DNA of 64,000 nt from assembly GCA_965216315.1 (NCBI GenBank), contig CBDCFN010000015.1, positions 384,001 through 448,000 on the forward strand, read 5' to 3'. Made by a program: the position numbers and the translations under genes. Below the pieces are notes generated by a model. It was not told where the DNA came from and did no database searches. It saw nothing but the letters and a program-made list of their open reading frames with translations. Positions 1 to 34,048 of this stretch are shown here, piece by piece; the stretch's first letter is position 1; every line of letters starts with the position of its first letter. This DNA comes from a bacterium. GTDB lineage: Bacteria; UBA10199; 2-02-FULL-50-16; JAJFLM01.

Positions 1-910
1 GCCGGACCCTCATTATCCCTGCTACCCGAGTTTTGTCCAATTCCTGAACGGTCAACCCGTCTACGTCCCCGTCGCGGAAGCTGACGGTTTTCAGTACCGG
101 CCGGAAGAGGTCAAAAAGCGCGTCACGAACCAGACCAAGGGAATCATGCTGACCTCGCCGGCGAACCCGACGGGGACGATTATGGACGCCGATACGATGG
201 AACAGATGGCTGAACTGGTAGGGGCGCCGCTTGCTGCGCCCGATAAAGGCCCCTACATTGTCAGCGACGAGATTTATCATGGGCTCGTGTATGAACCAAT
301 TGCGCCGGGTGACGCGGGACACATTTTCGCGAACGAGACTTCAGCGAGCGAGCCGAAAATCGTGTCGCAGCGGCAGGACCCGGCCACTCGTTGCGAACAT
401 TCCATTCTTGAGTTCACCGACCGTGCCTTCGTCATCAACGGCTTCTCCAAGGCCTATGCGATGACCGGTTTCCGGCTCGGCTACTGCATCGTCCCGGAGG
501 ACTTCGTCCGTCCCATGCAGATCATGCAGCAGAACCTGTTTATTTCGGCCAATAGCTTCGTCCAGCAGGCCGGCATCACGGCCCTGCGTGACGCGGGACC
601 CGACGTCGAGCGCATGCGTCAGGAATTCGATCGCCGCCGCCGCCTTGTGTTGACGCGCTTGCAGGAAATGGGCTTCCGGATCGCGGTCGAACCGCTCGGG
701 GCCTTCTATGTCTTCGCGAATGCCAAGCATCTCACCCAAGATAGCTTCCAGTTTTGCATGGACCTCTTTGACGCGACCGGAGTGGCGGTGACACCGGGCA
801 TTGATTTCGGACCCGGGGGGGAAGGTTACCTGCGTTTTTCATACGCGAATTCGCTGGAGACAATTCAGGAGGCGCTGAACCGAATAGCAGCCTATTTGAA
901 GGCGACCTAG
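1..910 (+). CDS. PLP-dependent aminotransferase class I/II (5' partial)
   Basis: Open from window start (PDPHYPCY...); motifs SPANPTG, SDEIY, NGFSKAYAMTGFRLG, YLRFSYA; carries two palindromic in-frame insertions. Confidence 0.95.
   Translation, partial: PDPHYPCYPSFVQFLNGQPVYVPVAEADGFQYRPEEVKKRVTNQTKGIMLTSPANPTGTIMDADTMEQMAELVGAPLAAPDKGPYIVSDEIYHGLVYEPIAPGDAGHIFANETSASEPKIVSQRQDPATRCEHSILEFTDRAFVINGFSKAYAMTGFRLGYCIVPEDFVRPMQIMQQNLFISANSFVQQAGITALRDAGPDVERMRQEFDRRRRLVLTRLQEMGFRIAVEPLGAFYVFANAKHLTQDSFQFCMDLFDATGVAVTPGIDFGPGGEGYLRFSYANSLETIQEALNRIAAYLKAT
218..256. repeat. GTAG-type REP-like palindrome inserted in-frame in aminotransferase
   Basis: gtaggggcgccgcttgctgcgccc...gcccctac; first 24 nt match the reverse complement of 43383-43406 with 1 mismatch. 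Confidence 0.75.
304..384. repeat. Long imperfect hairpin inserted in-frame in aminotransferase
   Basis: gccgggt/acccggc and gacacattttcg/cgaaaatcgtgtc arms; about 30 extra aa between GLVYE and EHSILEF. Confidence 0.6.
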
Positions 911-12869: not shown

Positions 12870-13003
12870 AACTTTAAGCCTGTATTTTATAGGATGTCCC
12901 CAGCAACGGGCAATGTTAAAAAAAAACAGTGATTTCCAGTTTTTGACAGGGCCGGCCTATATTGATATGTCTCAATCCTCTTACTCGAAGGAAGATTTGC
13001 GTA

Positions 13004-13912
13004 ATGCATCACGATGAAGACATGCCTCGTATTTCCCTAAACGGAACCGAGCTGATGTACTTCGATGAAGGTCGGGGCGATCCACTAGTGCTGGTGCACG
13101 GTTCCGTTAGTGATTACCGGACTTGGGAGTTACAGCGTCGGGCTTTTGCGGAGCGGTTTCGCGTCATTACCTACAGTCGGCGCTATCACTGGCCGAATGC
13201 CCCTATCTCTGACGGGGACGACTATGTGATGGCCGAGCACGTTGACGATCTTGAAGCGCTGGTAGAACATTTGGGCCTTGCGCCGTTGCACCTGGTCGGA
13301 CATTCCTATGGAGCCTTTTTGTGCCTGCTGCTCGCAATCCGAAAACCGCAATGGGTGCGCCGGCTGGTGCTGGCGGAGCCACCCGTGGTCCCACTGTTTC
13401 TCAGCAATCCTCCTCGGCCATGGCAACTGATTCAATTGCTATTGCGCCACCCCCGAACGGCTGCAGCTATTTTTAAAATTATGGCGACTGGATTTGGTCC
13501 GGCGACGCGAGCGTTCAAGCGAGGGGATACAGAGACCGGTCTCCGTCGCGTCGGCGAAGCCATTTTTGGTCGGGCCGCTTTTGAGAATTTTAAAGGTGGC
13601 CATGGGGCACAGATAACAGCCAATACGAGTGCCACGGTGGCGGAATTTTTGGGGCCGGGATTCGAGCCGCTTGATGTAGATAGCGTTCGCGCCGTGTCGA
13701 TGCCGACCTTGCTGGTAAATGGTCAGGAAAGCAGGGGCATTTTTCATCGTCTTACCGATCGACTCGCCGAACTCATGCCGAATACCCAGCGTGTGTGGAT
13801 CCCCAGGGCGTCTCACGGCATGCATGAGACCAATGACCAGGCCTTCAATGCGGCTGTCCTCACGTTCCTACGACCCGACAAAACCCTTGCCCAGCCGGAT
13901 TCCATCCGATAG
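13004..13912 (+). CDS. Alpha/beta hydrolase
   Basis: LVHG, GHSYG nucleophile elbow, C-terminal His; start uncertain. Confidence 0.9.
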   Translation: MHHDEDMPRISLNGTELMYFDEGRGDPLVLVHGSVSDYRTWELQRRAFAERFRVITYSRRYHWPNAPISDGDDYVMAEHVDDLEALVEHLGLAPLHLVGHSYGAFLCLLLAIRKPQWVRRLVLAEPPVVPLFLSNPPRPWQLIQLLLRHPRTAAAIFKIMATGFGPATRAFKRGDTETGLRRVGEAIFGRAAFENFKGGHGAQITANTSATVAEFLGPGFEPLDVDSVRAVSMPTLLVNGQESRGIFHRLTDRLAELMPNTQRVWIPRASHGMHETNDQAFNAAVLTFLRPDKTLAQPDSIR

Positions 13913-17638: not shown

Positions 17639-18268
17639 TTAATGCCCTTCTTCTCCTTCCTCAGAGGGCTCTTCAGTGCGATTCAAGTTAGGCTGATCTT
17701 CTCCCGTGCCACCATGCCAGTAGGTTGAACATCGTGTGACCGCGAAATCATCGGAAAGCCTATCGTTACGCAGAGAGTCGGGCCAACTCTGACACGCAAT
17801 GCAAACGGCTTGACGGGCTTCCGATAATTCTTGCTGCAAGACTTCGAGGGTGTGACTCCCTCCACGGCAGAGACGGTCTTTTTCGAGCCATTGCTGGTTG
17901 AGCCGCAAATACTCAGTCCAGAGTCGGTCCGATTCAGTGTGAATGAAGGCCGTGCATTCTGCGTTAGGTGCTCGTGAGGCGACTCTAATAAATCCATAGG
18001 ATTGCTGACGCACTGTCAGGCTCTCCTGTTCAAGCTGATCCGCTTCGTGACAAATTTGTTCTTTTTCATCGTGACGCCGTTTGGCTGACTGGTACTGTTG
18101 GGTGGCGAGGACGCAATTATCGAGCTGGAGCGGAGGTCGATTAGCGGCCGAAATGTCGATCACTTTTTTGCTGATGCCAAAATCGCGCAGGCTGATGGCA
18201 TGGCTACTTGATAGGGGCCAAATGAATGTCAGCCCGATGACGATAATAAAGAGTTTAATGATATTCAT
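17639..18268 (-). CDS. Hypothetical secreted helical Cys-containing protein
   Basis: Signal peptide; RBS ggaggctaccATG. Confidence 0.75.
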   Translation of the reverse strand: MNIIKLFIIVIGLTFIWPLSSSHAISLRDFGISKKVIDISAANRPPLQLDNCVLATQQYQSAKRRHDEKEQICHEADQLEQESLTVRQQSYGFIRVASRAPNAECTAFIHTESDRLWTEYLRLNQQWLEKDRLCRGGSHTLEVLQQELSEARQAVCIACQSWPDSLRNDRLSDDFAVTRCSTYWHGGTGEDQPNLNRTEEPSEEGEEGH

Positions 18269-18279
18269 GGTAGCCTCCT

Positions 18280-18858
18280 TTACTCGGTACCCAGCGCACT
18301 TGTACGTAAGCAGACCGCATAGCGCGTGACTTCAAATTTCACAGGCGATGAGCTTGTTCCATCCAGCGCGTTGACCAGGGAAACAGCGATAGGCTTGCCG
18401 GTTTCCGGAGATGTAATCGTTCCAAAACCCGTCTTCATGCCTAAACGCTTCGTCGTGGCATTTTTAGTCTGCGAGGTGTCAGGCAGTGCCTGGAAGGCGA
18501 ACAGTTTGTCACCGCGCTTGCATTTAAGCGCAGGCGGATCATTGTAGCCGGGTTCCGGGTTATTGGAACTCTGAGCAAAGTTCCGATCATAGCAGTAGCG
18601 GTGAATATAAATCGAATCTTCCGGATAGTATGTCTTGGGACTTCCGCAATAAATAGACTGCACGTCCTTTCTCAAATAGATCATTTTGGGACTCGTCACC
18701 TTGACTGGATTGATAATGGATATTGCCTGGGTTGCCGATGGCGTTGAAGGTTCGACCCCTGTCGCTGGAATTTTTACATTGTAAAATTCGGCGAATGCGG
18801 GACCCGTAATCAGTGCTATCGCAATGACAAATGTGACCTTGCTCAGTGTCTTTCCCAT
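18280..18858 (-). CDS. Hypothetical secreted protein
   Basis: Signal ending AFA; RBS ggaggctaccATG, identical to the next gene. Confidence 0.75.
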   Translation of the reverse strand: MGKTLSKVTFVIAIALITGPAFAEFYNVKIPATGVEPSTPSATQAISIINPVKVTSPKMIYLRKDVQSIYCGSPKTYYPEDSIYIHRYCYDRNFAQSSNNPEPGYNDPPALKCKRGDKLFAFQALPDTSQTKNATTKRLGMKTGFGTITSPETGKPIAVSLVNALDGTSSSPVKFEVTRYAVCLRTSALGTE

Positions 18859-18886
18859 GGTAGCCTCCGTTCTGGCTATTAGGTCT

Positions 18887-18902
18887 TGCAAAACTTATGC
18901 CA
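18887..18902 (-). promoter_or_regulatory. sigma54 promoter
   Basis: TGGCATAAGTTTTGCA (GG-N10-GC). Confidence 0.75.
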
Positions 18903-18975
18903 TGATCACCGGACCATAAATTAAATAACTTATTGAAATTATTTAATAAATTTACTCTTCTTGTGCATGGCCCCA

Positions 18976-19007
18976 TTATCATTCTGATAAAATTATCAAA
19001 TTGATAA
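18976..19007. promoter_or_regulatory. Tandem palindromic operator (putative enhancer)
   Basis: TTATCAttcTGATAA aa TTATCAaatTGATAA. Confidence 0.7.
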
Positions 19008-19069
19008 TATTTGTCGTTGGCCCGCTACGGAAAAAGTGAAGGAAATTGGCGAGTTAGCAAAACGGTGTT

Positions 19070-19085
19070 TGGCATAGATCATGCA
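19070..19085 (+). promoter_or_regulatory. sigma54 promoter
   Basis: TGGCATAGATCATGCA (GG-N10-GC). Confidence 0.65.
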
Positions 19086-19108
19086 AAGACGGCAGGGAGG
19101 AGGATGCG

Positions 19109-19486
19109 ATGCAACATATTAAGTGGGTCATGGCCGTAGCCATCTTGGGGTCCTGTTTCGTTATTAACGTCCCGTCCGGAGTTGAGGCGCGGTCCGATCT
19201 AGTCGTCGGGAGCGGTGAGCTGAGCGAGGCACAAAAACAAAAAGAGGTCTGCGGGAAGTTACGCGATGAGTGTAAGCAGAGCTGCAAGCGTAATTACGAC
19301 CACGAACTCAACCTCGCGCGTGAAGAGGCCAAGCGCGGTGCGATAGCCACGATCATCTTTGGGGAGTCTGCGGATCCCCAGGTGGAACTCGATGCCGCCC
19401 TGGAAAAATGTAAAGGCAATTGTGATGAGGATTTTACCTGTTGCCTCGAACAGCAGGATCCGCTGGGCTGCTTTTACGGGATCTAA
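19109..19486 (+). CDS. Small secreted Cys-rich protein
   Basis: Signal peptide; CxxxC motifs; RBS ggagg. Confidence 0.75.
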   Translation: MQHIKWVMAVAILGSCFVINVPSGVEARSDLVVGSGELSEAQKQKEVCGKLRDECKQSCKRNYDHELNLAREEAKRGAIATIIFGESADPQVELDAALEKCKGNCDEDFTCCLEQQDPLGCFYGI

Positions 19487-19527
19487 TCGCTACCTAATTA
19501 CGAATTGCTCCATCTGAATAGAGACTT

Positions 19528-20667
19528 TTAGAAACTTCGAACAAAACTGATTCGTGAAGTTATGGGCTTAAAGCCGAGCGTGCGATTTAGGCTGATCATA
19601 CCGGTATTGCTCGACTCATTAGCGACGAGGATAGTTGGAATTCCCTGTTCTTGTGCGTAGGCAATTGTTCGTACTTTGAGGGCGAGTGCAATTTGGCGGC
19701 GGCGGTAAGCCGATTTCACTCCGGTGAGGTGGCTCCAGGCATGTTGCATGACTGCGCGGCCGAGCAGACTGCTCGTGCCGATATAATTCCCTTCGTGAAG
19801 GGCGACAAAGTAGGCGTCGGGTGAGAAGCCTGGGCTTTGAAGAATAACCTTTGAAAAGCTCTCAAAACTCATCTTGAGCGTGCCCTCTGGAAAAGGAGCG
19901 TCACTCAAGAGTTCGTTTTCAAGGTCATAAAGCTTACGGTCGCGTTCCGGATCAGCTGCCAGCTCGCTCATCGATTTGATTTCTATTCCCTCGTTATTCA
20001 ATCGAGTCTCATGTTCTTGATAAGGCGCCAAATTAGCCAGAGCGACGGGCAAAGTCATGACGACGTCACGCATACGCTCTCGGAAACCGCGTTGTTTCAG
20101 AAAGGCGATTCCCGCCGACGATTCCTGGTTCAGAACGACGCGGATGGTTTGAGGATTGAGAACTTGCAGTGCCGTCATGATCGTGGAGAAAAGGCGACTT
20201 CCTATTCCGCGCTTTTGAAATTGCGGGTGAACAAAGATCTTTATTGTGTATTTGTCGGGATGATAAACGATATATGGCTGATCATATTCAGCAAAAGCGA
20301 TGATTTCACCCTCGTGCCTGACGACCCAGCGCTGAAGGCGGCAGCGAGGATCCCGACTCACATCAAAAAAACGGATTTCGTCAGCAGTGAGTGGACGTTC
20401 AGGATAAGCGATATTTTGAAGTACACTGATCGCAGGGGCGTCGATAGGGCGATAGAGTTGGAGCGGATAAGCCCGGTTTCGAACTGCCTGGATTGTGTTT
20501 GTGCGCTGAAAGGCGAGATTGCGTTGATGTTGGGTGGCCAGCAGCGTCGGAGGTCCCTCAAAATGAAAGCTGTCCAGGCGGCGATAAGGACACGCGGTTT
20601 CCACAGGCGGTAACAAGGCCGTCGTGATTCCGAAACCGCTGAGAGAAGTTAGCAGGGGTGAGCTCAT
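19528..20667 (-). CDS. Tandem GNAT acetyltransferase with orphan N-terminal extension
   Basis: VHPQFQKRGIGS and TGVKSAYRRRQIALALK..N..LGF motifs. Confidence 0.85.
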   Translation of the reverse strand: MSSPLLTSLSGFGITTALLPPVETACPYRRLDSFHFEGPPTLLATQHQRNLAFQRTNTIQAVRNRAYPLQLYRPIDAPAISVLQNIAYPERPLTADEIRFFDVSRDPRCRLQRWVVRHEGEIIAFAEYDQPYIVYHPDKYTIKIFVHPQFQKRGIGSRLFSTIMTALQVLNPQTIRVVLNQESSAGIAFLKQRGFRERMRDVVMTLPVALANLAPYQEHETRLNNEGIEIKSMSELAADPERDRKLYDLENELLSDAPFPEGTLKMSFESFSKVILQSPGFSPDAYFVALHEGNYIGTSSLLGRAVMQHAWSHLTGVKSAYRRRQIALALKVRTIAYAQEQGIPTILVANESSNTGMISLNRTLGFKPITSRISFVRSF

Positions 20668-20676
20668 CGTGATGCC

Positions 20677-20703
20677 GTATCGGCTGTTGAAACACAATGT
20701 TGC
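20677..20703 (-). promoter_or_regulatory. sigma28-like promoter
   Basis: GCAAC-N14-GCCGATAC, 9 nt before ATG 20667. Confidence 0.65.
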
Positions 20704-20793
20704 TGAGGCAGAATGACAAGTGTTTACGGGAGTATACGCAGGATTCTCTTTCATTGTAGTTAAGGTAGTGGCGTGGCATAATACAAAAAATAC

Positions 20794-22374
20794 ATGCCGA
20801 AGCTCTGTTTGATTAATCCACCGACCACGACCTCAACGGAGGAGATTTATTTTCCGATGGCCTTAGTGGCCTTGGGCTCGATGTTGAAGGCCGGTCAAAT
20901 ACCTTTTGAACTTATCGATTTTGACCTGGAACTTCAGAACAAGCCGCTCTTGTCGCAATGGCACTATTTTAAAGATTATGCCCTTCGCAGGCTTAAGAAA
21001 ACCGATACGAGGTGTTTCGGGATTTCGAGCATTTGTTCCAACTACCCCGTGTCTCTCTTGCTCGCGAAGGCCATCAAAGAGCGCTGGCCGCGCAGTTGTA
21101 TCATCCTAGGGGGTCCTCAGCCGTCAGCGGTGCCGGAAGAAACCTTGCGGCTCTGCCCCTGGGTCGATGTCATTGTTATTGGTGAGGGAGAATGGACCTG
21201 CGTTGAACTGATGAAAAGTGATTTGAGCGCTGAATCACTGCGTACAATTGCGGGAATTGTCTTTAGGGATGGCGATGAAATTGTGCGAACCGAACGGCGC
21301 CCCTTGATAGAAGACTTGGATACGCTTCCTTTTCCAGATTATAGCTTGGTTCCGCTCAAGGAATATCTGCCGATCACGAATCACGTCGATTTGATTGAGG
21401 CTGGCCGGGGGTGCCCTTTTCTTTGTTCGTTTTGTTCGACGGCCTTAATGTGGGAACGCAAGTTCCGGGTGAAATCTCCGGCGCGCATTCTCGAAGAAAT
21501 GCGCCGGCTCAACGCGGATTACGGTTTGGTTTCGTTCGGGTTGACCCACGACAATTTTACGACCTCGCACCGTCATGTGGCGGCGTTCTGCGAGTACTTT
21601 CGTACGCATAATCACGAACAATTTATCTGGTCAGCCAGTGCGAGGAGTGACACGCTGAACCCGGAACGTATACAGGCCTTGTATGATGCGGGCTGTCGCG
21701 GGCTATTTTTTGGAGTCGATTCCGGTTCAGTCCGCATGCAAAAGGTCATGAAAAAGCAGCTCAACCTTGCGCAATTCAAGGAGCATCACAATATATCGAG
21801 TCATCTCGGTATGTCGTCGATTACGTCGCTGATACTTGGGTTTCCTGAAGAAACAGCGGAGGATGTGGATGCGACGATTCGCTTAGGACTTTGGGCCAAG
21901 CTCAACGGTTCTTCAACGGTCCAGTTTCATCGCTTATCAGTCTTGCCGAGCACGGCCCTCTCCAAGCAGCATCACGGTGCCCTGTTTTTTGATACGCAAA
22001 AGACCTCGTGGGATTTTGACAGGCAATCGCATGAGAGCCGTGAGATCGATCGCCAGATTCGTAAGAGCCCGGAGCTTTTTTCAACCTTTTATACTTTGCC
22101 AACACCTTTGCTCGGATCGATAAACATCGAAGCGTTAGCCTTTTTCTACCATGAACTCGTCAATTTTATGGCCCCGACGCTTGACCATATCTTTATGGTT
22201 ACAGGCTGGAGCACCGTCGAATTGTTTGAATGCTGGTTGCGGTGGAAGGAAAACTACTATCCGAAACGGCGGGTGAGCGGGCCTTTTATTTTTAATACTT
22301 TTGCGGAATTTGTTCGTAAGGAGGTCACACGGAGCGAAGGAAATGGATTCAATATTCAACAGGAGGCGTTATGA
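20794..22374 (+). CDS. B12-binding radical SAM enzyme
   Basis: N-terminal B12 domain (ILGGPQPS, VIGEGE); GRGCPFLCSFC. Confidence 0.92.
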   Translation: MPKLCLINPPTTTSTEEIYFPMALVALGSMLKAGQIPFELIDFDLELQNKPLLSQWHYFKDYALRRLKKTDTRCFGISSICSNYPVSLLLAKAIKERWPRSCIILGGPQPSAVPEETLRLCPWVDVIVIGEGEWTCVELMKSDLSAESLRTIAGIVFRDGDEIVRTERRPLIEDLDTLPFPDYSLVPLKEYLPITNHVDLIEAGRGCPFLCSFCSTALMWERKFRVKSPARILEEMRRLNADYGLVSFGLTHDNFTTSHRHVAAFCEYFRTHNHEQFIWSASARSDTLNPERIQALYDAGCRGLFFGVDSGSVRMQKVMKKQLNLAQFKEHHNISSHLGMSSITSLILGFPEETAEDVDATIRLGLWAKLNGSSTVQFHRLSVLPSTALSKQHHGALFFDTQKTSWDFDRQSHESREIDRQIRKSPELFSTFYTLPTPLLGSINIEALAFFYHELVNFMAPTLDHIFMVTGWSTVELFECWLRWKENYYPKRRVSGPFIFNTFAEFVRKEVTRSEGNGFNIQQEAL

Positions 22375-22880
22375 TTAAGCGAGTGAAAACGAAGGTCTTT
22401 TCCATATTTTCCATCTTAACCGGTTTTCTTATGGGAACGGCGACACAGGCAAAAGCGGCGGATATTTTCTATAAGCCCGCTGCCAAAGCGGATTCGAATG
22501 CTTCAAGGGGTGCGCCGACCATGACCGAGCATGGAGCCCCGATCATGACGGAGCACGGCGCGCCAACTTACCGGGCACTTGGTGCGCCGACCATGACCGA
22601 GCATGGAGCCCCGATCATGACGGAGCACGGTGCGCCAACTTACCGGGCACTTGGTGCGCCGACCATGACGGAGCATGGAGCTCCGACCATGACGGAACAC
22701 GGTGCGCCAATGGTCACTGACTTAGGGCGGACGGAAAGCATACGAGACAGTAATGACGAGGTCGTTGATGTCCCAGCGGAGACGAAGGTTCTTCTGGATA
22801 CCAAAATTCTCCTCGAACGCTTGAGAGGCATTGAAAGTTCTCTTGAGCGGCTGGAGCAAAAAATCGAGCGAGAAAAGTGA
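22371..22880 (+). CDS. Signal-peptide protein with nine 8-aa GAP repeats (putative RiPP precursor or substrate)
   Basis: ATGA overlap with rSAM; AKA-A signal cleavage; GAP(T/I)MTEH and GAPTYRAL repeats; C-terminal coiled coil. Confidence 0.8.
   Translation: MIKRVKTKVFSIFSILTGFLMGTATQAKAADIFYKPAAKADSNASRGAPTMTEHGAPIMTEHGAPTYRALGAPTMTEHGAPIMTEHGAPTYRALGAPTMTEHGAPTMTEHGAPMVTDLGRTESIRDSNDEVVDVPAETKVLLDTKILLERLRGIESSLERLEQKIEREK
22509..22727 (+). repeat. 24-nt x9 coding tandem repeat with 72-nt higher-order unit
   Basis: Directly visible; synonymous variation among units. Confidence 0.95.
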
Positions 22881-22888
22881 GGAATAGA

Positions 22889-23053
22889 ATGATTAAAGAT
22901 CAAGAAGTTAGAAATGAAGAGCGAAGGATGGATGCCGAACGCGAGATTACACAGTATGCGATTCTTCAAGCCCTTGATGCGATTGAAAAGCGAATTGCAG
23001 CTCTCGAGTCTCGGCTAGAGATGAGAGATGGCGCCCAGAATACTAGTCCTTAA
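22889..23053 (+). CDS. Small coiled-coil protein (54 aa, absent from ORF track)
   Basis: RBS gagga; MIKDQEVRNEERRMDAEREITQYAILQALDAIEKRIAALESRLEMRDGAQNTSP. Confidence 0.65.
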   Translation: MIKDQEVRNEERRMDAEREITQYAILQALDAIEKRIAALESRLEMRDGAQNTSP

Positions 23054-24527
23054 TCCGCCCAGCCCCGGCCGCGCGTACCTGAATCGTGATCTCATGGGTG
23101 GCATGGGAGTTCATAACCCGAGGGGCAAGAGCCTGCGGGCGAAACTCTTATTTAAGCTCAAAGGCACGACAATTCACATGCCCGTCATGCAGCTGGTGTA
23201 TGGTGCCACCTTGCTCAAACGAGAGGGCTTTGACGTTCGTGTGATCGATGCCGTGAATGAAGGTCTTCATTTGACGGATGTGCTCAAAAAGGCCGATGAC
23301 TTTGCACCGGACGTGATTTTAATGGCGACGAGCAGCGCCGGTTTTAGGTTTGAACGTGATGAAGTGGCGCGTGGCCTGAAGTCGCTGTGTCCAGAGGTCA
23401 AGATCATTGTCGTCGGTGACATGGTGACGGCCCTGCCGGAACAATTGTTGCCCTGGTTTGACGTGGCGGTCATGGGGGAGGTGGAACAGGCGGTCGTGTC
23501 ACTCTGCCACGGCGATGATTATGAAACAATTCCATCGATCATCTGGCGTGAGGGAGATCGGGTGCATCAGAGTTCGCGCGGTAAGTCGTTTCTGGCGGTT
23601 CGAACACTGGAGACACTGCCGTTCCCGGATTGGAGTCTCTTTCCCTATACGCATTATTCCTATTACCCGCAGCTCAGCCAGGCGCCGGTTGCGTTGATTC
23701 AGGCCTCGCGAGGCTGTCCTTACGAATGTGGTTATTGTCCCTATCCGTCGAATCAGGGGCGGCAATGGCGGGCCCGCAGCGCGGAAAACGTCTATGCCGA
23801 GATTCAGTGGGATCTTGAATTTGGATTCAATGCTTTTTTCTTTCGAGACCCGCTTTTCACGGCGGATCAGGAGCGTGTGGAGGCCTTGTGCGATCTGATC
23901 TTGGGGGATGGCGTCAAGATAGAGTTCGTTTTTGAGACACGGCCTGAACTTTTGACGCGTCCCGGTTTGATCGAGAAGCTAGCGCGTGCGGGATGCCAGG
24001 CGATCAACTTTGGAGTTGAAGACGTTCATCCAGAAATTCTGCGCTCGATTAACCGTCGGCCCGTACCACTCGACCAGATTCGAGCGACGTTGCGCGCCTG
24101 CGAGACGAGTGGGATCAAAACGACCTGTTTCTATATTTTAGGTCTTCCGGGGGCGACAAAAGAGTCGATGAAAGAGACGATCCAATTCAGCCGCGAAGTT
24201 CTGAGTCATTTCGTCGAGTATAAAGTTGCAACGCCGTTTCCCGGCACTTCTCTTTATCACCTTGCAAAGTTGAATGGTTGGATGAAGCGTGAGGGCTTCG
24301 ACCAGCTTGGGGGTTACAGCGCAGCGATGCGCGTATCCGATGAATACGATGAGGGTTATTTAGAGGGCTTAGCGGAGCGTAGTGCCATCGAGTATTACTT
24401 CCATCCACGCTATCTCTATCGTTTTATCCGGCGGGGCGAATTGTTCAAGCTTTTTAAAGTCTATGCTAAGACTCACTTTCAGAGACCGATGCAGTCTCTG
24501 AAGCTCGCGCACGAGCGGTCTCCGTAA
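23028..24527 (+). CDS. B12-binding radical SAM enzyme
   Basis: VLNPP, B12-type N-terminal domain, SRGCPYECGYC, TPFPGT. Confidence 0.92.
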   Translation: MAPRILVLNPPSPGRAYLNRDLMGGMGVHNPRGKSLRAKLLFKLKGTTIHMPVMQLVYGATLLKREGFDVRVIDAVNEGLHLTDVLKKADDFAPDVILMATSSAGFRFERDEVARGLKSLCPEVKIIVVGDMVTALPEQLLPWFDVAVMGEVEQAVVSLCHGDDYETIPSIIWREGDRVHQSSRGKSFLAVRTLETLPFPDWSLFPYTHYSYYPQLSQAPVALIQASRGCPYECGYCPYPSNQGRQWRARSAENVYAEIQWDLEFGFNAFFFRDPLFTADQERVEALCDLILGDGVKIEFVFETRPELLTRPGLIEKLARAGCQAINFGVEDVHPEILRSINRRPVPLDQIRATLRACETSGIKTTCFYILGLPGATKESMKETIQFSREVLSHFVEYKVATPFPGTSLYHLAKLNGWMKREGFDQLGGYSAAMRVSDEYDEGYLEGLAERSAIEYYFHPRYLYRFIRRGELFKLFKVYAKTHFQRPMQSLKLAHERSP

Positions 24528-25221
24528 AGCGCAGGGGTTTGAAGCGATAGAGTAGAATGCACCACAGGGCCTTAAATCCATCCGTTACGCCGATTTTTTT
24601 GCCGTCTTCGTAAGTGCGGCCGTGATAAGCAATGCCGACTTCATATATCCGTGCCTTTAACCGGGCCATCTTACAGGTTATTTCTGGTTCGATCCCGAAG
24701 CGGTCTTCTTCAAGGACGAGCGACTGAATCAACTCGCGACGAAAAATTTTATAACAGGTCTCGATATCGGAGAGGTTGAGGTCGGTGAGGATGTTGCAGA
24801 ACGAAGTAATTACCTTGTTGCCGATATAATGCCAAAACATCAGGGCGCGATGCGCTTGATCGGAAAAAAAACGAGAGCCGTACACGACATCGGCGCGGTC
24901 TTGCTCAAGCGGTTCAAGTAGTTTGGCATAGTCGTTCGGATCGTATTCTAAATCAGCGTCCTGAACGATCACATACTGACCGCGCGCGAGGCGAAAACCG
25001 GTGCGGATCGCTTTGCCTTTGCCGTAGTTGCGCGCGAGGCGAATCACGCGCGTGTTAGTCGATTTGGCTTCGATCTGGCACAGGTGTTCGGGCGTGCGAT
25101 CCGTTGACCCGTCATCAACGATGATCAATTCTTTGTCAATGTCGACGCGCTGCACCTTTTCGACGATCTCACGTATAGTATCTTGTTCGTTATAAACGGG
25201 AATAATGACGGATAGTTTCAC
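24466..25221 (-). CDS. GT2 polyprenol-phosphate glycosyltransferase (DPM1-like)
   Basis: [27 protein letters not shown]. Confidence 0.93.
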
Positions 25222-26171
25222 AGCTTACCTGCCAAGAGATCGTCGTAGTATTGAATGGTTCGTTTCAGGCCATCTTCGAGAGTGACCTTGGGATGCCAGT
25301 CGAGTTGGGCCTGCGCCAGGCTAATGTCAGGGCAGCGTTGCGTCGGGTCGTCTTCCGGCAAAGGTTCAAAGACAAGTGCCGATTGAGAGCCCGTGAGATC
25401 CAAGATCAATTGAGCGAGATCGAGTACGCTTATTTCTTGGGGATTACCAAGGTTGACCGGACCAACGAAATCATCATCGCTGTGCATCAATCGGATGAGG
25501 GCATCTATCAAGTCCGTAACGTAACAGAAAGAACGTGTTTGTTCGCCTTTGCCAAAGATCGTGATTGATTCGGCTTTGAGGGCCTGCACGATGAAATTCG
25601 AAACGACGCGGCCGTCATTGAGACTCATGCGAGGACCATAGGTATTAAAGATGCGCGCGACTTTTATCGGTAGCTGGTATTGCCGGTGGTAATCGAAGAA
25701 CAGCGTTTCCGCGCAGCGCTTGCCTTCATCGTAGCAAGCCCTCACGCTGATGGGATTGACATGGCCCCAATAGGACTCATTCTGGGGATGTTCATCGGGG
25801 TCACCGTAAACTTCACTCGTTGAGGCCTGCAATATCTTCGCGTTGAGTCGCTTTGACAAGCCCAGCATGTTGATCGCTCCGTGAACACTAGTCTTTGTCG
25901 TCTGTACCGGACTGCGCTGGTAGTGAGTTGGGGCTGCGGGACAGGCGAGGTTGTAGATCTCGTCGATTTCGACATAGAGAGGGAAACAGATGTCGTGACG
26001 CATCAATTCGAAGTAAGGGTTCGCGATGAGAGTTGCAATATTTCGCTTTGCTCCCGTAAAGAAATTATCAACACAAAGGACTTCGTGACCATCCCGGAGA
26101 AGTTGCTCACACAGATAAGATCCAAGAAAACCGGCGCCCCCGGTGACGAGTATTCGCTTGCTCTGTTTCAT
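25218..26171 (-). CDS. UDP-glucuronate decarboxylase (UDP-xylose synthase) family
   Basis: [38 protein letters not shown]. Confidence 0.93.
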
Positions 26172-26902
26172 TACCGTATCCGCTTGAAAATTCCTTCAGG
26201 AATGAGTTTAGCGGATTTTGCGATCAACCACCAAAACTTTGGGACGTAAATGCTGTTTTTTTTGCGCTGGATGGCCTTGTAAATGCCTTTCCCGACCCTC
26301 TCCGCGCTCGCAAACAGCGGATTCTTGTTTCGCTCTGCGGTCATGGGCGTGTCGACGTAGCCCGGCTTGATCGTGAGCACATGAACGCCCTCGCGATAAA
26401 GCCTCTTTCTCAAGCCCTCTAAATAAGTGGTCAGTGCCGCCTTTGCGGAGGCGTAGATGTAATTATAACGGAGTCCGCGATCACCGGCGACCGACGTGAT
26501 GACGGCGATTGTGCCGCTACCCTGTGCGCTCAGCCTGTTGGCGAGCGTGGTGAGTAACGAGACGGCACTCAGATAGTTGGTATGGATCTCTTGCTCCGCA
26601 ATGCGAAAGTCACTTTCAGAACGCAATTGATTTCCATAGGAGCCATGGGCGATCAATACCGTGTCAAGCTGCGGGAAGGTCGTAAAAACTTCATTGATGA
26701 GACTTTTATGGCGGTTGAATTCATTTAAATCAGCGATGGCTGTTACGACCGATGCTCCGCGGTCGCGAAGATCCCCAGCGACCTGATTCAATTTATCCGG
26801 GTTACGCGCGATCAAATACAGGGTATCCCCTCGGGCGGCGAAATGTTTGGCGACTTCGTGGGCTATTTTGGAGGTGGCTCCGAGGATGAGACGTGTCGCC
26901 AT
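26171..26902 (-). CDS. SDR, DprE2-like
   Basis: [29 protein letters not shown]. Confidence 0.85.
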
Positions 26903-26914
26903 AAAAGTATAGTA

Positions 26915-28624
26915 TCAAGGCGTACTCGGTACGGGCAAGAACCAAAGCGCGCGATTAGCGCCATAAACCGCGGTCAAAAAACGCGCGCCACGGTGCTGTC
27001 CCTCGGGCCACTGGGTTCCGCTGATGATGAGAGGTGTCGTGGGAATAAGGTTTTGACTCATTGAAAAGAGGTGAATCTTGGACTCTGGCAATAGAAAGTG
27101 CAATCCTGTTATGAAGGCCGTGCGTCCGGGATAGACGGATGGGGCGTCGACATCAAAGTTGATGTGAGCGGCATAGGGGCCCAGTTCTCGGATCGAAGCG
27201 GCAATCTGGAAATGCCGGGCGAGGTAGTGTCCTTTGGAAAGGATGCGGCGATAGGCATGAGCCGTGCTCAATACGAAGGCCATAGAGACCAGAATGAGTC
27301 CCATCGCATAGGCGCGCTTCGTACTAAGTGCGAGCGTGAACCAGATTCCACAGACGACGAGGGTGCCGACGGCAAAACTCAAACTCGTGGTTCCGTATAA
27401 ATACCATGGTCCTAAGCCAAATAGACTCGAGCCTGGATCATGAACAGCTGGGAACACCTGTACGCCGCGAATTGCATAGAGCAGCGCTGTTATGGCAACG
27501 ATGATCAATGGTACCAGCAAGACTTTTCGCCAGCTACGCGGTTTCATTTCGGTGTAGAGCCCCAACAACGCAATTGCAATAAAGACCGCGATGAAACCTT
27601 CATTATAGCGTCCATAAATAAAATTGACCCATTCCGGGATGATTAAGATGCGCCCGGCCAAGTGTAGATTGGCGGTGAAGAACATGCCCGTGCTGGTAGT
27701 CAGTAGAAATAAGAGGGTATGTGACTCGCTATTGCGAAAGCAGCCTAGCGCTGTTTGTTGTCCGGCCTTCCATAGCGTGCGGATCAGAAAGAAAATCCCG
27801 AAGAGAAAGAGGCCGTAGGTGGCGACGGTCAGGTACCACGTCTGCCCCAGGGCTTCGATGAAGAATTCCCACCAGCCGCTAAGTGTCGATAAAGTTACGA
27901 ATAAATCAGTGACCGAATGTCGAATTGCTCCGACTGCGAAAGCGACGTGCTCATTGATCCATTCGACCATGAAATACCCTCCGAGCAGACAGCTGCACCC
28001 GAGTCCTCCGGTCCAGAGAGAAAGGCGTCGTATAAACATGAGGATAATCAGATGAAGGAAACTCAAGATAATGACGGGAAAGGCCTTGCCATGGGCGGCA
28101 TAGAGCAGGGGCACGATGAGTCCGAAGAGCAGAACCCAACGAATGTTGCCGCGGATGCACAATCGCCAAAAGGTGATGATAGCGCCGGTGTACAAAGGAA
28201 TGAAGAGGTTTTCTGAAAGGGCAAACTGAGCATTGATGATAAAGGCGGGATAGAGTGCCGTGACAAAGGCGATCGCAGCGGCCAACTTAAGCGGCGCTTT
28301 CAGAATGCGATGGATGAGTACCAAGAGAGAAAAATAAATGGTACTCAACAGGCTGGCATTGAATAACAATACGGCTTTGTAGGCCTGCAGTGGATCCGTG
28401 AAAATCCAGAGAAAGGGCGCAATGAGGGCGGGGTAAAGGGAGGGCCTTAGGTATTGACCGGTAAGGTCCGGGATGATGCCAGAGCCGGCAAAGTAGCGCG
28501 CTGTTACCAGGAACGAAAATTCATCTGGAACGACGCTGGGAAACCGGACTTTTAAGCTGAGCGCTGCATGGAACGCGACGAGGGCGAGATACGGGATACA
28601 GTACCAAAGGCGGGACTTAGACAT
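26915..28624 (-). CDS. Polytopic membrane glycosyltransferase (GT-C-like)
   Basis: PDE motif after TM1, LYP, SENL; many TM helices. Confidence 0.65.
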   Translation of the reverse strand: MSKSRLWYCIPYLALVAFHAALSLKVRFPSVVPDEFSFLVTARYFAGSGIIPDLTGQYLRPSLYPALIAPFLWIFTDPLQAYKAVLLFNASLLSTIYFSLLVLIHRILKAPLKLAAAIAFVTALYPAFIINAQFALSENLFIPLYTGAIITFWRLCIRGNIRWVLLFGLIVPLLYAAHGKAFPVIILSFLHLIILMFIRRLSLWTGGLGCSCLLGGYFMVEWINEHVAFAVGAIRHSVTDLFVTLSTLSGWWEFFIEALGQTWYLTVATYGLFLFGIFFLIRTLWKAGQQTALGCFRNSESHTLLFLLTTSTGMFFTANLHLAGRILIIPEWVNFIYGRYNEGFIAVFIAIALLGLYTEMKPRSWRKVLLVPLIIVAITALLYAIRGVQVFPAVHDPGSSLFGLGPWYLYGTTSLSFAVGTLVVCGIWFTLALSTKRAYAMGLILVSMAFVLSTAHAYRRILSKGHYLARHFQIAASIRELGPYAAHINFDVDAPSVYPGRTAFITGLHFLLPESKIHLFSMSQNLIPTTPLIISGTQWPEGQHRGARFLTAVYGANRALWFLPVPSTP

Positions 28625-31239: not shown

Positions 31240-31288
31240 TTGAAATGCACGCGACCAGTTGATTACTGATTTTAGTGAAGGGGGAGTC

Positions 31289-34048
31289 ATGCTCAAAAAG
31301 ATAATTTTGATCACATTCTGCGGTTTGTTTGTGTTCGGATTCAACATTGCAACAAGAGTTGATGCCGCCGAACTTAAAGAAGCACCTCGTGAAATAATGG
31401 TGGTGCGCCCCACGATTCTCCAACAGGACACCCTTCAAATCAACGAAGTGCCTTTTACTAAGTTGAAGCGTCTCGCCTATGAAGTGCTCGCACTTAAAGA
31501 ACAGATCGGTCAGAAAAAATATCAGGCCTGGGTCGCGCGAGAAGCGAGAATCAAAGCCTTGGCCGATCAAATATCCATTCCTAAAACGGATACGAACTTA
31601 CTCAGCCAAAACTCGATTCGGTCAAAAGTTTCCTCCAGCTTTTTTGGAAACTTATTCTCCCGCTTCTTCGGTAAGCAAGATGATGCCAAGACGATTGAAA
31701 GCAAACCAATCAAGTCGGTACTGCGACCGGAACTCGAGCAAAAGCAAATACGTGCCGCAGCTATTAAACCCAGTGCAACCCCAAGCTTCGGCAAGCTGGC
31801 CGTGCAAGAGCGCCTCAGAAATCAAGAGATAAAACGGTTGGAGAATAAAATTGCGGATAAAGTGGAGGTAATTTCCGGTTTAATTGAGTCAATCTTTGGG
31901 AGTGTTCCGACAGATGTGCAGATCGACGGCTCAAGCCTTAAACTGGAAGCGGCTGTCGCGACCATAGCTAGCTTAGCCTGGGCCGATGCCATCACCAGGC
32001 TGCCGCTTTCCGGTGTGGGTACACGTTTTAGATTAGAGGCCAACGCAAACCAGAACGTCTTTTTTGGAATTCAGCAAGATGATGCGAGCTATGCGAACTC
32101 GCCTTATTTGGCCTATTTTATGCTGCTCAATCGCATTTCCCAGTTACGATCCCAGAGTTCCCTGGATGAAGATGCGTTGCATCTTGCCTATCGCCAGCTC
32201 GAGTATCAGCAAGCGCTACTGAATAACGCCCTCTTTAATAATCCGACCCGGGGAGTTTCTGCCATCGATGCCGCGTTAACGGAGGCTATCTTAGCCCTGC
32301 ACGAGCGCTTGGTAAATAACGGCCGTTCCATTTTAGCCAAAGATTTCTTTAATAAGAATTTGCAGGTCTCGGCCTTTTTCATGGAGGCTCTTAAGTCCGT
32401 TCATACCTCGCAGTTTGTACGCTATCTGTGTTTGCCCGCGCAGATTGAGCGCCTTGATAGCATCACCTGGGCGGAACAGTGCGATAAAAGCGAAAACAGC
32501 CTACTGTATAAAACGATTGGTGGTGCCAATTATGCAAATTCGGCGCTTAAGCTACGAGGTGGTTTGCTGATCGCCGAACCCAAGGTGCGGGGCATGCCCC
32601 TGGCCATGTTGAATCTCAATGGTGGTGCCTTATTTGGCCATCCGGCCATGAGCCTAATAGAATTTTTTCAGAATCACTATCTGGACCCTGTGAGTCTCGG
32701 CGAAGGATGCTCGGCCCACGAAGCCGTTGCCAACGGGGGCGCCTGTAAGAGTCAGATTTCCTGTCAAATTCAGGCTGCTTTGGCCAGTGGGGGCAGCATT
32801 GATCCCATGCTACCTGGTCTGACTCCCTTGACCGGTACCTTGCACTCCGAATTTACGGTTCACGGGGTCGCACGGAGTGAGTTGGATATCTCATTTTGCG
32901 GCGCTGCTGGGAGTAAGCCTGGTGGTAGTTTTCTAGGACGCGACTGGTCCTGTCTCTTGCCGACGCGGAGTTCACCCTTTGGTCCGATTGATCCGGCCAC
33001 GGGTAATTTTGTCAGCGGTGAAATCCGAAGGATTCACGAATGTGTGGGCGAGACGGCTTTGGCTGATGGACTTGTCGAGGTCTCTTTGTCTGTCGATGGT
33101 GGACCGTCCTTTAAACAAATCAGTCGTGACTGCATGGGGGATTTTGCTAGCGATACGCGCGCGGAACAAATGGCTCGAAGCACTCGCGGCAGTTTTGAAC
33201 AAATATTTGGACGTACGGGTGAGCTTTTTCAGGGCGATGGAAAGAGTTTTACAAACCATTGTCGATCACTCGCTGGGTTCTTGGCACCGGGAGCGAGTGC
33301 ATCTGTTGAGGCCTTTATGCAGGCTGAAGCCGAAACAATAGTTTCTCGCGCGATTCAACAAGCGGAGCAAGACTTTGCTTCCGCAGAAATGAGAATTGAT
33401 TTTCCAGTTGAGGGTGAAACGGATCAATCCCGGACTCGACTGCACAATTTTGCCAAGCGAGTCGCGTCTATTGCTATCGGTCTCATGAAGCGTCAAATGG
33501 GGGGCGGACAAGGGTTGCCAGAAGCTGACGCGGGAGAAGCCGTCGCTAGAGATCGCATTGAGCAAGCGAGCGAGGATTATGAAAGACAAACGCAAACCGC
33601 AGACGCGGGCACTTCAAATCAATGCGATCCGGCCTCGAGCGCTCGGTGCTCTAGTGCCTGTACCCCCTTCGATCAAATGCTGGCCGATCAAATGGAATGT
33701 CCGGATGGCGATTCAACAGCGGAAGGCATTAGAGCTGCCGCCTGTCTCTTTGCGGTGGATACCTGTGGGGACATCGCCCAAGAGGCTGCGGACATGCAGA
33801 TCAATAGCCTAACGGCCTGCTTTGAGGCCCCGGAGCTGAGGACTTTTGCGAGTTGTATCGCGTCTAACTGTCCGGAAGATAATCCTACTTGCTGCGCCGA
33901 GGCCGGGGGCGAGGCGCCGGCAGCGACGGCCGAAGACCTGACGGGTGTCGGGACGCCGGGTGCCAATCCAGGTCCTGAGGGCGGCTTTGCGCCCAGCGAT
34001 GATAGTCCAAGGATTCCGGTGGTCATTGGAGGGCCCCGCGGCAATTGA
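31289..34048 (+). CDS. Large secreted hypothetical protein, Cys-rich C-terminal half
   Basis: Signal peptide, RBS ggag; no family recognised. Confidence 0.8.
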   Translation: MLKKIILITFCGLFVFGFNIATRVDAAELKEAPREIMVVRPTILQQDTLQINEVPFTKLKRLAYEVLALKEQIGQKKYQAWVAREARIKALADQISIPKTDTNLLSQNSIRSKVSSSFFGNLFSRFFGKQDDAKTIESKPIKSVLRPELEQKQIRAAAIKPSATPSFGKLAVQERLRNQEIKRLENKIADKVEVISGLIESIFGSVPTDVQIDGSSLKLEAAVATIASLAWADAITRLPLSGVGTRFRLEANANQNVFFGIQQDDASYANSPYLAYFMLLNRISQLRSQSSLDEDALHLAYRQLEYQQALLNNALFNNPTRGVSAIDAALTEAILALHERLVNNGRSILAKDFFNKNLQVSAFFMEALKSVHTSQFVRYLCLPAQIERLDSITWAEQCDKSENSLLYKTIGGANYANSALKLRGGLLIAEPKVRGMPLAMLNLNGGALFGHPAMSLIEFFQNHYLDPVSLGEGCSAHEAVANGGACKSQISCQIQAALASGGSIDPMLPGLTPLTGTLHSEFTVHGVARSELDISFCGAAGSKPGGSFLGRDWSCLLPTRSSPFGPIDPATGNFVSGEIRRIHECVGETALADGLVEVSLSVDGGPSFKQISRDCMGDFASDTRAEQMARSTRGSFEQIFGRTGELFQGDGKSFTNHCRSLAGFLAPGASASVEAFMQAEAETIVSRAIQQAEQDFASAEMRIDFPVEGETDQSRTRLHNFAKRVASIAIGLMKRQMGGGQGLPEADAGEAVARDRIEQASEDYERQTQTADAGTSNQCDPASSARCSSACTPFDQMLADQMECPDGDSTAEGIRAAACLFAVDTCGDIAQEAADMQINSLTACFEAPELRTFASCIASNCPEDNPTCCAEAGGEAPAATAEDLTGVGTPGANPGPEGGFAPSDDSPRIPVVIGGPRGN

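Follow-up and report, generated by a model that had tools for sequence, protein, structure and literature searches.

What do the radical S-adenosylmethionine (rSAM) enzymes encoded in this stretch of bacterial DNA act on? Within the stretch (the window, 64,000 nucleotides (nt) in full), four tightly packed genes on the + strand encode, in order, a class B (cobalamin-type) rSAM enzyme (rSAM1), a 169-amino acid (aa) repeat protein with a signal-peptide-like N-terminus (the partner), a 54-aa open reading frame (ORF), and a second class B-type enzyme (rSAM2). The ORF coordinates confirm the tight linkage described in an earlier note on this DNA, which had proposed that two flanking rSAMs and the repeat protein form one system resembling those of peptides that are made on ribosomes and modified after translation (RiPPs). 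The partner ATG overlaps the rSAM1 stop codon by 4 nt, the 54-aa ORF starts 8 nt past the stop of the partner gene with an AGGA 8 nt upstream of its ATG, and rSAM2 overlaps the 54-aa ORF by 26 nt. The reading favored here is narrower. With a probability of about 50%, the functional core is rSAM1 together with the adjacent Sec-exported partner, a RiPP-like pair whose partner would be modified before Sec translocation. Conserved linkage, co-phylogeny, co-occurrence, family anatomy, and folds are what the analysis established.

The pair recurs outside the window. Sampling covered 40 related genomes (41 with the source genome, G000), 77 loci from a genome collection, and 22 from metagenomes; a metagenome scan with rSAM1 alone gave no relative, and the 22 loci came from a repeat of the scan with an alignment. 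Among the 40 genomes, rSAM1 has orthologs at 58% identity in two (G037 and G010) and paralog-like relatives at 34-45%. The G037 ortholog is adjoined by a signal-bearing protein with seven GAPTPTxTEY units, which is 44% identical to the window partner (E 1e-21). Upstream of other close enzymes (53-54% identity), the partner is built of GILAAPATQx, SSGLNQxPAPN, GQWNAPVP, or AGSLMAPAP units. A second enzyme clade (clade B), 38-43% identical to rSAM1, is accompanied by a differently built partner. In a quick maximum-likelihood tree with SH-aLRT support (42 rows, 35 of them ingroup), the partner lies next door in six of seven rows of clade A, the clade of rSAM1, and in 15 of 18 rows of clade B, as the earlier note had anticipated in a test set beforehand. 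One further clade-B row (L115) starts inside the enzyme gene, so adjacency is not judgeable there. The other two, L112 (1371-1661) and L116 (7071-7475), have a Lys-rich mini-ORF upstream rather than the usual partner; with its AKKAVKK-like stretches, it may be another substrate type. L034 has no resolved place in the tree and too little upstream DNA to judge a partner.

Whether a partner is of type A or type B follows the enzyme clade, and many enzyme-partner pairs share the 4-nt start/stop overlap. Over 23 loci, the only recurrent neighbors are the enzyme (23) and the partner (11 + 4, in two BLAST clusters), and no protease or transporter recurs, in keeping with the earlier remark that neither a dedicated protease nor an ABC exporter lies near the locus. 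With a profile built from 21 partners, six of the 41 genomes give a match, the best one always lying directly beside an rSAM1-family gene, and the partner never occurs without an rSAM in these genomes. A gene-encoded precursor beside its enzyme, with a variable core between conserved regions, is the general arrangement of RiPPs, and the loci of the pair show it. This two-gene unit is conserved, rare, and without description in the literature searched, where work on radical SAM RiPPs with Sec signal peptides yielded no B12-rSAM system.

rSAM1 has both domains of a class B enzyme, B12-binding PF02310 (47.9 bits, E 1.4e-12; cut-off 32.1) and Radical_SAM PF04055 (72.5 bits, E 6.1e-20), and its CxxxCxxC motif (C207/C211/C214) is invariant in 28 homologs. 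Some class B members, such as AprD4, are not known to use cobalamin. Its AlphaFold2 (AF2) model (pLDDT 90.7) has TsrM, CysS, AprD4, MgmA, OxsB, and TokK as top Foldseek matches, in agreement with a profile search of PDB sequences, and the model thus predicts a class B rSAM fold. The best NCBIfam match is ApyD (NF050148), at 265.8 bits against a cut-off of 750, which falls short of an equivalog assignment. Kinship with peptide-modifying B12-rSAMs, as proposed earlier, is therefore supported by the best match, though far below the cut-off. The RiPP maturation rSAM C-methyltransferase profile TIGR03975 scores 123.8 bits for rSAM1 and 81.7 for rSAM2, neither reaching its cut-off of 281.85, and the MgmA profile TIGR04014 scores 89 for rSAM1 against 360. 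More distant homologs of ~650 aa lie in RiPP-like clusters with radical-SAM-like and transporter-like genes, as judged from N-terminal sequences. TsrM, which the earlier note had counted among methylases of peptide residues, acts on free tryptophan, as stated in the title of PDB 6wtf.

The window partner begins with a signal, judged by eye, that comprises the n-region MIKRVKTK, a hydrophobic core, and A-K-A followed by AD; a short, conserved post-signal stretch, ADIFYKP, comes next. Its octads are ordered GAPTMTEH, GAPIMTEH, GAPTYRAL, GAPTMTEH, GAPIMTEH, GAPTYRAL, GAPTMTEH, GAPTMTEH, and GAPMVTDL. In the DNA, Tandem Repeats Finder resolves the array into 2.8 copies of a 72-nt super-unit (96% matches, score 369); with copies so alike, the array is a recent duplication. 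Ala-Pro occurs nine times in the protein, compared with 1.3 +/- 1.0 in 2000 shuffles, none of which reached nine. One study supplied four public runs whose contigs are identical (100%) to the array flanks; these contigs break inside the array, and none of them bridges 22538-22640. The unit sequences given in the earlier note are thus confirmed, whereas its count of nine is without independent confirmation. No Pfam or NCBIfam family covers the protein, and an ESM Atlas search gave no usable match. A match to the lasso-peptide leader NF033521 (26.8 bits summed over the repeats) was rejected as a repeat artefact, as no single stretch passes alone; it appears in only one of 21 partners.

A word-indexed homolog search with the 169-aa protein found only the protein itself, a limit of that method, as a profile search later gave 52 representatives of 77-240 aa in 1.84 billion proteins. 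Among 21 members, no curated NCBIfam family was matched, barring the lasso-leader artefact and one marginal GNAT match (E 0.0084). In general, the signal end is conserved, the middle is hypervariable and often made of tandem repeats, and a helical tail usually follows, which bears out the earlier comparison with multi-core precursors, in which a variable middle lies between conserved ends. Clade-B partners have the signal pattern MAxIKRAKGYxxYL...APxWA, then a conserved 'AKVFQE', and, at the C-terminal end, a helical tail that contains an L-T-x-E-E motif. Their middles often hold units such as GWLTAEHA, NIERPS, R[YE]TFPPE[AG], GADRMTFPPEATP, GIRAMFPDPP, and APAWPSQGMEI. Mean pairwise identity in clade B is 0.40 over the signal and post-signal region, 0.08 in the middle, and 0.17 in the tail. 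The G037 partner, the closest ortholog, has no helical tail, and therefore the tail is dispensable at least there; the coiled-coil tail, which the earlier note took as a possible follower, is not required.

Repeats are frequent in the family. Among 57 distinct full-length members, an exact 4-mer occurs at least three times in 28 and at least twice in 39, and all 11 A-type members have repeats. Unit sequence and period vary between close relatives. Ala-Pro is present in every unit of the ten A-type partners examined (10/10), with counts of 2-9 compared with ~1-2 in shuffles, while the rest of the unit differs. Only Ala-Pro is common to all clade-A partners, and the GAP triplet, suggested earlier as a recognition or cleavage motif, is not. 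In many B-type units, R-x(1-2)-F is present with P, T, or S coming next, and the Phe of the post-signal 'A-K-V-F' is invariant in 24 B-type partners. By sequence resemblance, the R-x(1-2)-F units appear to echo the post-signal 'AKVF', and the units are more than low-complexity sequence.

These features suggest a route in three steps. First, rSAM1 would modify the newly made partner in the cytoplasm, most likely by C-methylating unactivated carbons of side chains within or close to each unit, around Ala-Pro. Because rSAM1 lacks a recognizable RiPP recognition element (RRE), the post-signal stretch and, where present, the helical tail are candidate docking elements. Second, Sec would export the partner, and signal peptidase would remove the N-terminal signal at a site placed by eye. 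Third, the modified partner would end up as a protein of the periplasm or as a secreted one, or would be cut into peptides. The repeats would represent multiple copies of a variable core. In the source genome and in G037, an adjoining sugar module may add pentose to the Thr-rich units after export.

Several observations weigh against this reading. In rSAM1, no PqqD/RRE-type Pfam match and no other peptide-binding domain was found, the C-terminal domain (residues 416-514) consists only of helices in the AF2 model, and the match to the ApyD profile spans positions 76-436 of 645, leaving 1-75 and 437-645 unmatched. AprD4 ranks third in the fold search, and sugars and lipids are further substrates of class B rSAMs. 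No homologous partner accompanies one of the clade-A enzymes (L020, 58% identity). A third, sister clade (44-50% identity) has the partner in none of nine rows; its loci hold a pair of HMGL-like aldolase genes along with another two or three B12-rSAM genes and one for a ~260-280-aa protein without partner-like features, and therefore close relatives of rSAM1 probably use other substrates. On the partner side, an hhalign comparison of the A and B types aligned them over the signal peptide only (probability 77.5%). Homology throughout was accordingly dropped, and the partners are treated as two types with the same architecture. No 4-mer is repeated in 18 of the 57 full-length members; repeats are thus common yet not obligatory. 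No residue is common to all repeat types, and with the repeat-free members this leaves the modified site undefined. The proposed glycosylation meets its own difficulties: no GT2, UXS-like, or GT-C gene of the kind described below was found at L029 (6 kb on both sides) or L030 (~0.2 kb downstream, to the contig end), the sugar link rests on two genomes and may reflect a shared inherited island, and an Arn-like lipid A modification explains the sugar genes equally well.

The sugar genes bear most directly on the competing explanation that has fared best, although it is unlikely: that rSAM1 and rSAM2 tailor a sugar, polyprenyl-linked, or lipid intermediate of an Arn-like envelope glycan or lipid pathway, made by the products of the adjacent sugar genes, with the repeat protein an accessory or structural envelope protein, or the glycan acceptor, rather than an rSAM substrate. 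Four genes on the - strand converge on the operon (Table 1), encoding a GT2 glycosyltransferase, an epimerase/dehydratase, a short-chain dehydrogenase (SDR), and a multi-pass membrane protein. The GT2 matches the AglJ (7e-39) and ArnC-type (2e-23) NCBIfam profiles, both below cut-off. The epimerase matches the bifunctional UDP-4-keto-pentose/UDP-xylose synthase (1.2e-28) and ArnA (9e-27) profiles, also below cut-off, and 'UXS-like' (UDP-glucuronate decarboxylase type) is our own reading. The SDR scores 171 bits against the DprE2-type profile (cut-off 250) and has no counterpart at the G037 locus (no match in L019).

The 569-aa membrane protein has no Pfam match, and a PDB sequence search gave nothing meaningful. 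Its ESM Atlas neighbors are RgtA/B/C/D-like and GT39 PMT_2 proteins (score 0.99). In an AF2 model (pLDDT 82) built with an alignment of its 11 homologs, the first Foldseek match is ArnT 5f15 (E 2.8e-7, TM 0.54/0.56), followed by ALG12, STT3, PglB, AglB, AftA, and Pmt. The top 34 matches listed are all GT-C enzymes, which places the model in the GT-C fold. GT-C enzymes are expected to have an acidic motif in the first extracytoplasmic loop, and D34-E35 is invariant in the 11 homologs. The GT-C protein occurs in two of 41 genomes, G000 and G037, exactly those with GAP-T-x-TE[H/Y] partners. Beside the G037 unit, orthologs of the GT2 (68% identity), UXS-like (72%), and GT-C (43%) proteins are encoded convergently, despite rearrangement. 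This distribution suggests a link between the sugar module and the branch with Thr-rich GAP-T-x-TE[H/Y] units. Protein O-glycosylation by GT-C enzymes is exemplified by PMT and by pilin arabinosylation by TfpW. The module also resembles the Arn pathway, which combines a decarboxylase-like SDR (ArnA), a GT2 (ArnC), and a GT-C enzyme (ArnT), the last being the best fold match. It differs in its NCBIfam scores, all below cut-off, and in that the window lacks an aminotransferase, a formyltransferase, and a deformylase.

rSAM2 likewise points toward sugars. It has both class B domains (PF02310, 45.3 bits, cut-off 32.1; PF04055, 82.7 bits), and its best NCBIfam matches are HpnJ (181.4 bits, cut-off 577.6) and AprD4 (140.3 bits, cut-off 500), neither at equivalog level. 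Its best PDB match is AprD4 6fd2 (E 1.7e-34). No rSAM2 ortholog was found in the 40 relatives (best 31% identity) or at the other loci compared (best about 24-30%). Its closest database proteins are 59-65% identical, and some are labeled Woesearchaeota or Nanoarchaeota; together with the lack of an ortholog in the 40 bacterial genomes, this may reflect gene transfer between domains. The 54-aa ORF, heptad-like and charged, has no homolog in the 40 relatives, recurs at no other partner locus, and has only a sub-threshold DUF7310 coiled-coil match (E 0.083). An origin as a duplicated partner tail was dropped, as BLASTP gave no alignment. It is specific to the source genome and an unproven candidate gene only. 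Thus, rSAM2 and the 54-aa ORF are local additions outside the conserved unit, and the two flanking rSAMs do not form the unit first proposed. rSAM2 is more probably a companion of the sugar module than of the peptide.

The case for a glycan or lipid substrate includes the sugar genes at both GAP-type loci, three other rSAM genes in G037 in a co-directional run with GT-C, UXS, and GT2, the best relatives of rSAM2, AprD4 and HpnJ, which act on sugars or hopanoid sugars, the place of AprD4 among the top fold matches of rSAM1, the resemblance of the GT-C protein to a lipid A transferase, and the paralog clade without a partner. The earlier note had named partner-less close homologs in lipid or polysaccharide loci as a sign against its proposal, and half of that picture is seen: the sister clade has aldolase-like and rSAM genes in place of the partner, and the source locus abuts sugar genes. 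However, more than 20 rSAM-partner loci are without any sugar gene, the partner is never without an rSAM in the 41 genomes, partner type co-varies with enzyme clade, and the best curated profile of rSAM1 is a peptide methylase.

A slightly less probable alternative grants that the partner is exported and denies that its repeats matter to the enzyme. The repeats would only serve an exported coiled-coil protein as a flexible, possibly O-glycosylated linker rich in Pro, Thr, and Ala, and rSAM1 would act at most once, at the post-signal aromatic motif or the C-terminal domain, with the repeats as neutral, fast-evolving spacers and not cores. The repeat-free members fit this account, as do the linker-typical composition of the repeats (P, T, A, E, G) and the position of the clade-B invariant residues, which lie in the signal peptide and the 'AKVF' Phe rather than in the middle. 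Unit number also varies between near-identical sequences or assemblies: the G037-type partner is found in two sizes, with seven units in 149 aa (L028 7628-8077) and four units in 119 aa (P0043). Against this account, Ala-Pro is kept in every unit of 10/10 clade-A partners while the units otherwise differ. In addition, many clade-B units repeat R-x-x-F and so echo the post-signal site, which looks like the duplication of a site and not of a spacer.

That the 169-aa ORF is no real gene, or is unrelated to the enzymes, is close to refuted, for although it has no Pfam or NCBIfam family, was matched only by itself in the word-indexed search, and has no RNA run on record among the listed runs holding the stretch, the orthologous enzyme is adjoined by an ortholog that shares the signal and the core of the unit, the family profile yields 52 representatives, the match is adjacent to an rSAM in 6/6 genomes, and the 4-nt overlap couples the genes translationally.

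The favored pair of rSAM1 and exported partner can be set beside several known systems. ApyD, a B12-rSAM with an RRE, beta-methylates one Tyr in its substrate peptide (PMC10635010). Like ApyD and ApyA of the aminopyruvatide system, the pair combines a class B rSAM with a genetically adjacent, here putative, ribosomal substrate, and ApyD is the best curated profile of rSAM1. ApyD works alongside an MNIO, a P450, and a methyltransferase on a short leader-core peptide, whereas the pair lacks an RRE, has a signal peptide, would have several cores, and is accompanied by no further conserved tailoring enzyme. For the clavusporins, the B12-rSAM MpcB performs poly-C-methylation on Pro, Val, Ile, and Thr in a peptide with a leader-core-follower layout (PMC10849626). 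The MpcB/MpcC/MpcA system thus resembles the pair in joining a B12-rSAM to Pro/Thr-rich ribosomal cores, and its precursors have followers. Unlike the pair, mpc clusters depend on DUF5825 together with an S9 peptidase and a transporter, none of which is conserved here; the clusters use single-core precursors about 39 aa long and are confined to Actinobacteria. By analogy with ApyD and MpcB, C-methylation is the favored chemistry.

Precedents for general export come from bufferins, MNIO-modified RiPPs whose Sec-signal precursors are modified before export (PMC11626156), and from DAG-RiPPs, lipoprotein-signal RiPPs that use housekeeping export (PMC13056109). They share with the pair an unusually long precursor, a general export signal, and no dedicated exporter, and theirs are modified in the cytoplasm, then exported and cleaved by housekeeping enzymes. 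Their modifying machinery is an MNIO and a partner protein, not an rSAM, and their cores are Cys-based, folded, and single-copy, unlike the tandem hypervariable units here. The bufferin resemblance goes no further, as no MNIO (DUF692) or DUF2063-type partner domain was found among 44 window ORFs. By analogy, housekeeping export is proposed to replace a dedicated protease and transporter for the pair. A class B rSAM that methylates a protein residue, not a short peptide, is MgmA, the methyl-coenzyme M reductase glutamine C-methylase (PDB 9ccb), which is among the top sequence and fold matches of rSAM1. The MgmA substrate is a conserved enzyme subunit, whereas here it would be an adjacent hypervariable exported protein.

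In layout, the partner resembles fungal KEX2-processed repeat proteins and ustiloxin-type precursors, in which a signal peptide precedes tandem variable cores (PMC7329392, PMC9769878). The fungal precursors are eukaryotic, are reported to be processed in the secretory pathway at dibasic sites, and are not known to involve a radical SAM enzyme; in the present case, the units have no conserved cleavage motif beside them. A more far-reaching extension of the favored reading, put forward only tentatively, is that the pair defines a new ribosomal-product class, namely Sec-exported proteins with one to eight tandem fast-evolving cores, each modified by a stand-alone RRE-less B12-rSAM. The GAP-T-x-TE[H/Y] branch would then be GT-C-glycosylated in the periplasm, and the class would be a bacterial counterpart of the fungal signal-peptide repeat precursors.

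Table 1. Positions of the genes and protein segments discussed, in the window unless a locus handle is given.
Feature	Position	Strand	Description
rSAM1	20794..22374	+	526 aa, class B (cobalamin-type) radical SAM
Partner protein	22371..22880	+	169 aa
Signal-peptide-like N-terminus of the partner	aa 1-29, nt 22371-22457	+	Judged by eye
Nine 8-aa units of the partner	aa 47-118, nt 22509-22724	+	Each octad begins GAP
Heptad-like charged helical tail of the partner	aa about 119-169	+	Judged by eye
Small ORF	ATG 22889..23053	+	54 aa, or 58 aa from GTG 22877
rSAM2	23028..24527	+	499 aa, second class B-type radical SAM
GT2 glycosyltransferase	24466..25221	-	Polyprenyl-phosphate-sugar synthase type, AglJ/ArnC-like; Pfam Glycos_transf_2 1.1e-39
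NAD-dependent sugar-nucleotide epimerase/dehydratase	25218..26171	-	Pfam Epimerase, GDP_Man_Dehyd
Short-chain dehydrogenase (SDR)	26171..26902	-	NCBIfam PRK07102 280.5 bits (cut-off 267)
Multi-pass membrane protein	26915..28624	-	569 aa, GT-C fold (ArnT/PMT/OST-like) by fold search
Sister-clade clusters	L022 3935-12868; L032; L047/L121; L110; L064		Loci of the third enzyme clade

The Pfam scan of the window covered 44 ORFs, 12 within 17639-28624 and 32 further. No protease or ABC exporter was found among the 12, and the other 32 gave only an unrelated alpha/beta hydrolase at 12962-13912 and no exporter. A promoter and terminator scan of 20400-24800 gave counts no higher than shuffles and was uninformative. 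Public sequencing runs holding the stretch comprise four DNA runs of one study, and none is on record as RNA. Divergent from rSAM1, and only 39 nt away when its longest ORF is taken, lies a gene for a 408-aa protein with two GNAT acetyltransferase domains (19528-20754, - strand), which is not conserved beside the G037 ortholog. Four ORFs that flank the locus within 17639-19486 and 31259-34048, of 209, 203, 125 (Cys-rich), and 929 aa (Cys-rich), have signal-like N-termini and no above-threshold Pfam family.

Partner-less members of the enzyme family have varied surroundings. At L020 (7182-8262, G010:C40), two unrelated small signal-bearing ORFs, one of them Cys-rich, lie upstream of the enzyme, and a 683-aa protein without a Pfam family is encoded downstream. 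L027 (847-4952, G007:C27) holds two tandem rSAM1-family genes of ~675 aa (36% and 34% identity), with no partner match genome-wide. At L021 (114-8279, G027:C4), a 2721-aa ORF, whose sequence resembles that of a type I fatty-acid or polyketide synthase, lies beside a partner-less rSAM1 paralog and a run of sugar-nucleotide-like ORFs.

If the favored reading is true, rSAM1 and its partner form a compact two-gene system that needs no RRE, dedicated protease, or exporter, in which radical modifications, probably C-methyl groups, would be placed on multi-copy natural core libraries that leave via Sec. Such a system would be of use for enzyme discovery and engineering, and its natural variation, with dozens of unit sequences in 1-8 copies across two enzyme clades, amounts to a substrate-specificity series. 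Together with the GT-C module, it would provide a rare example of a bacterial glycoprotein that is also modified by a radical SAM enzyme. For the uncultivated lineage that carries it, the pair would open a first functional approach to the biology of the cell surface or periplasm.

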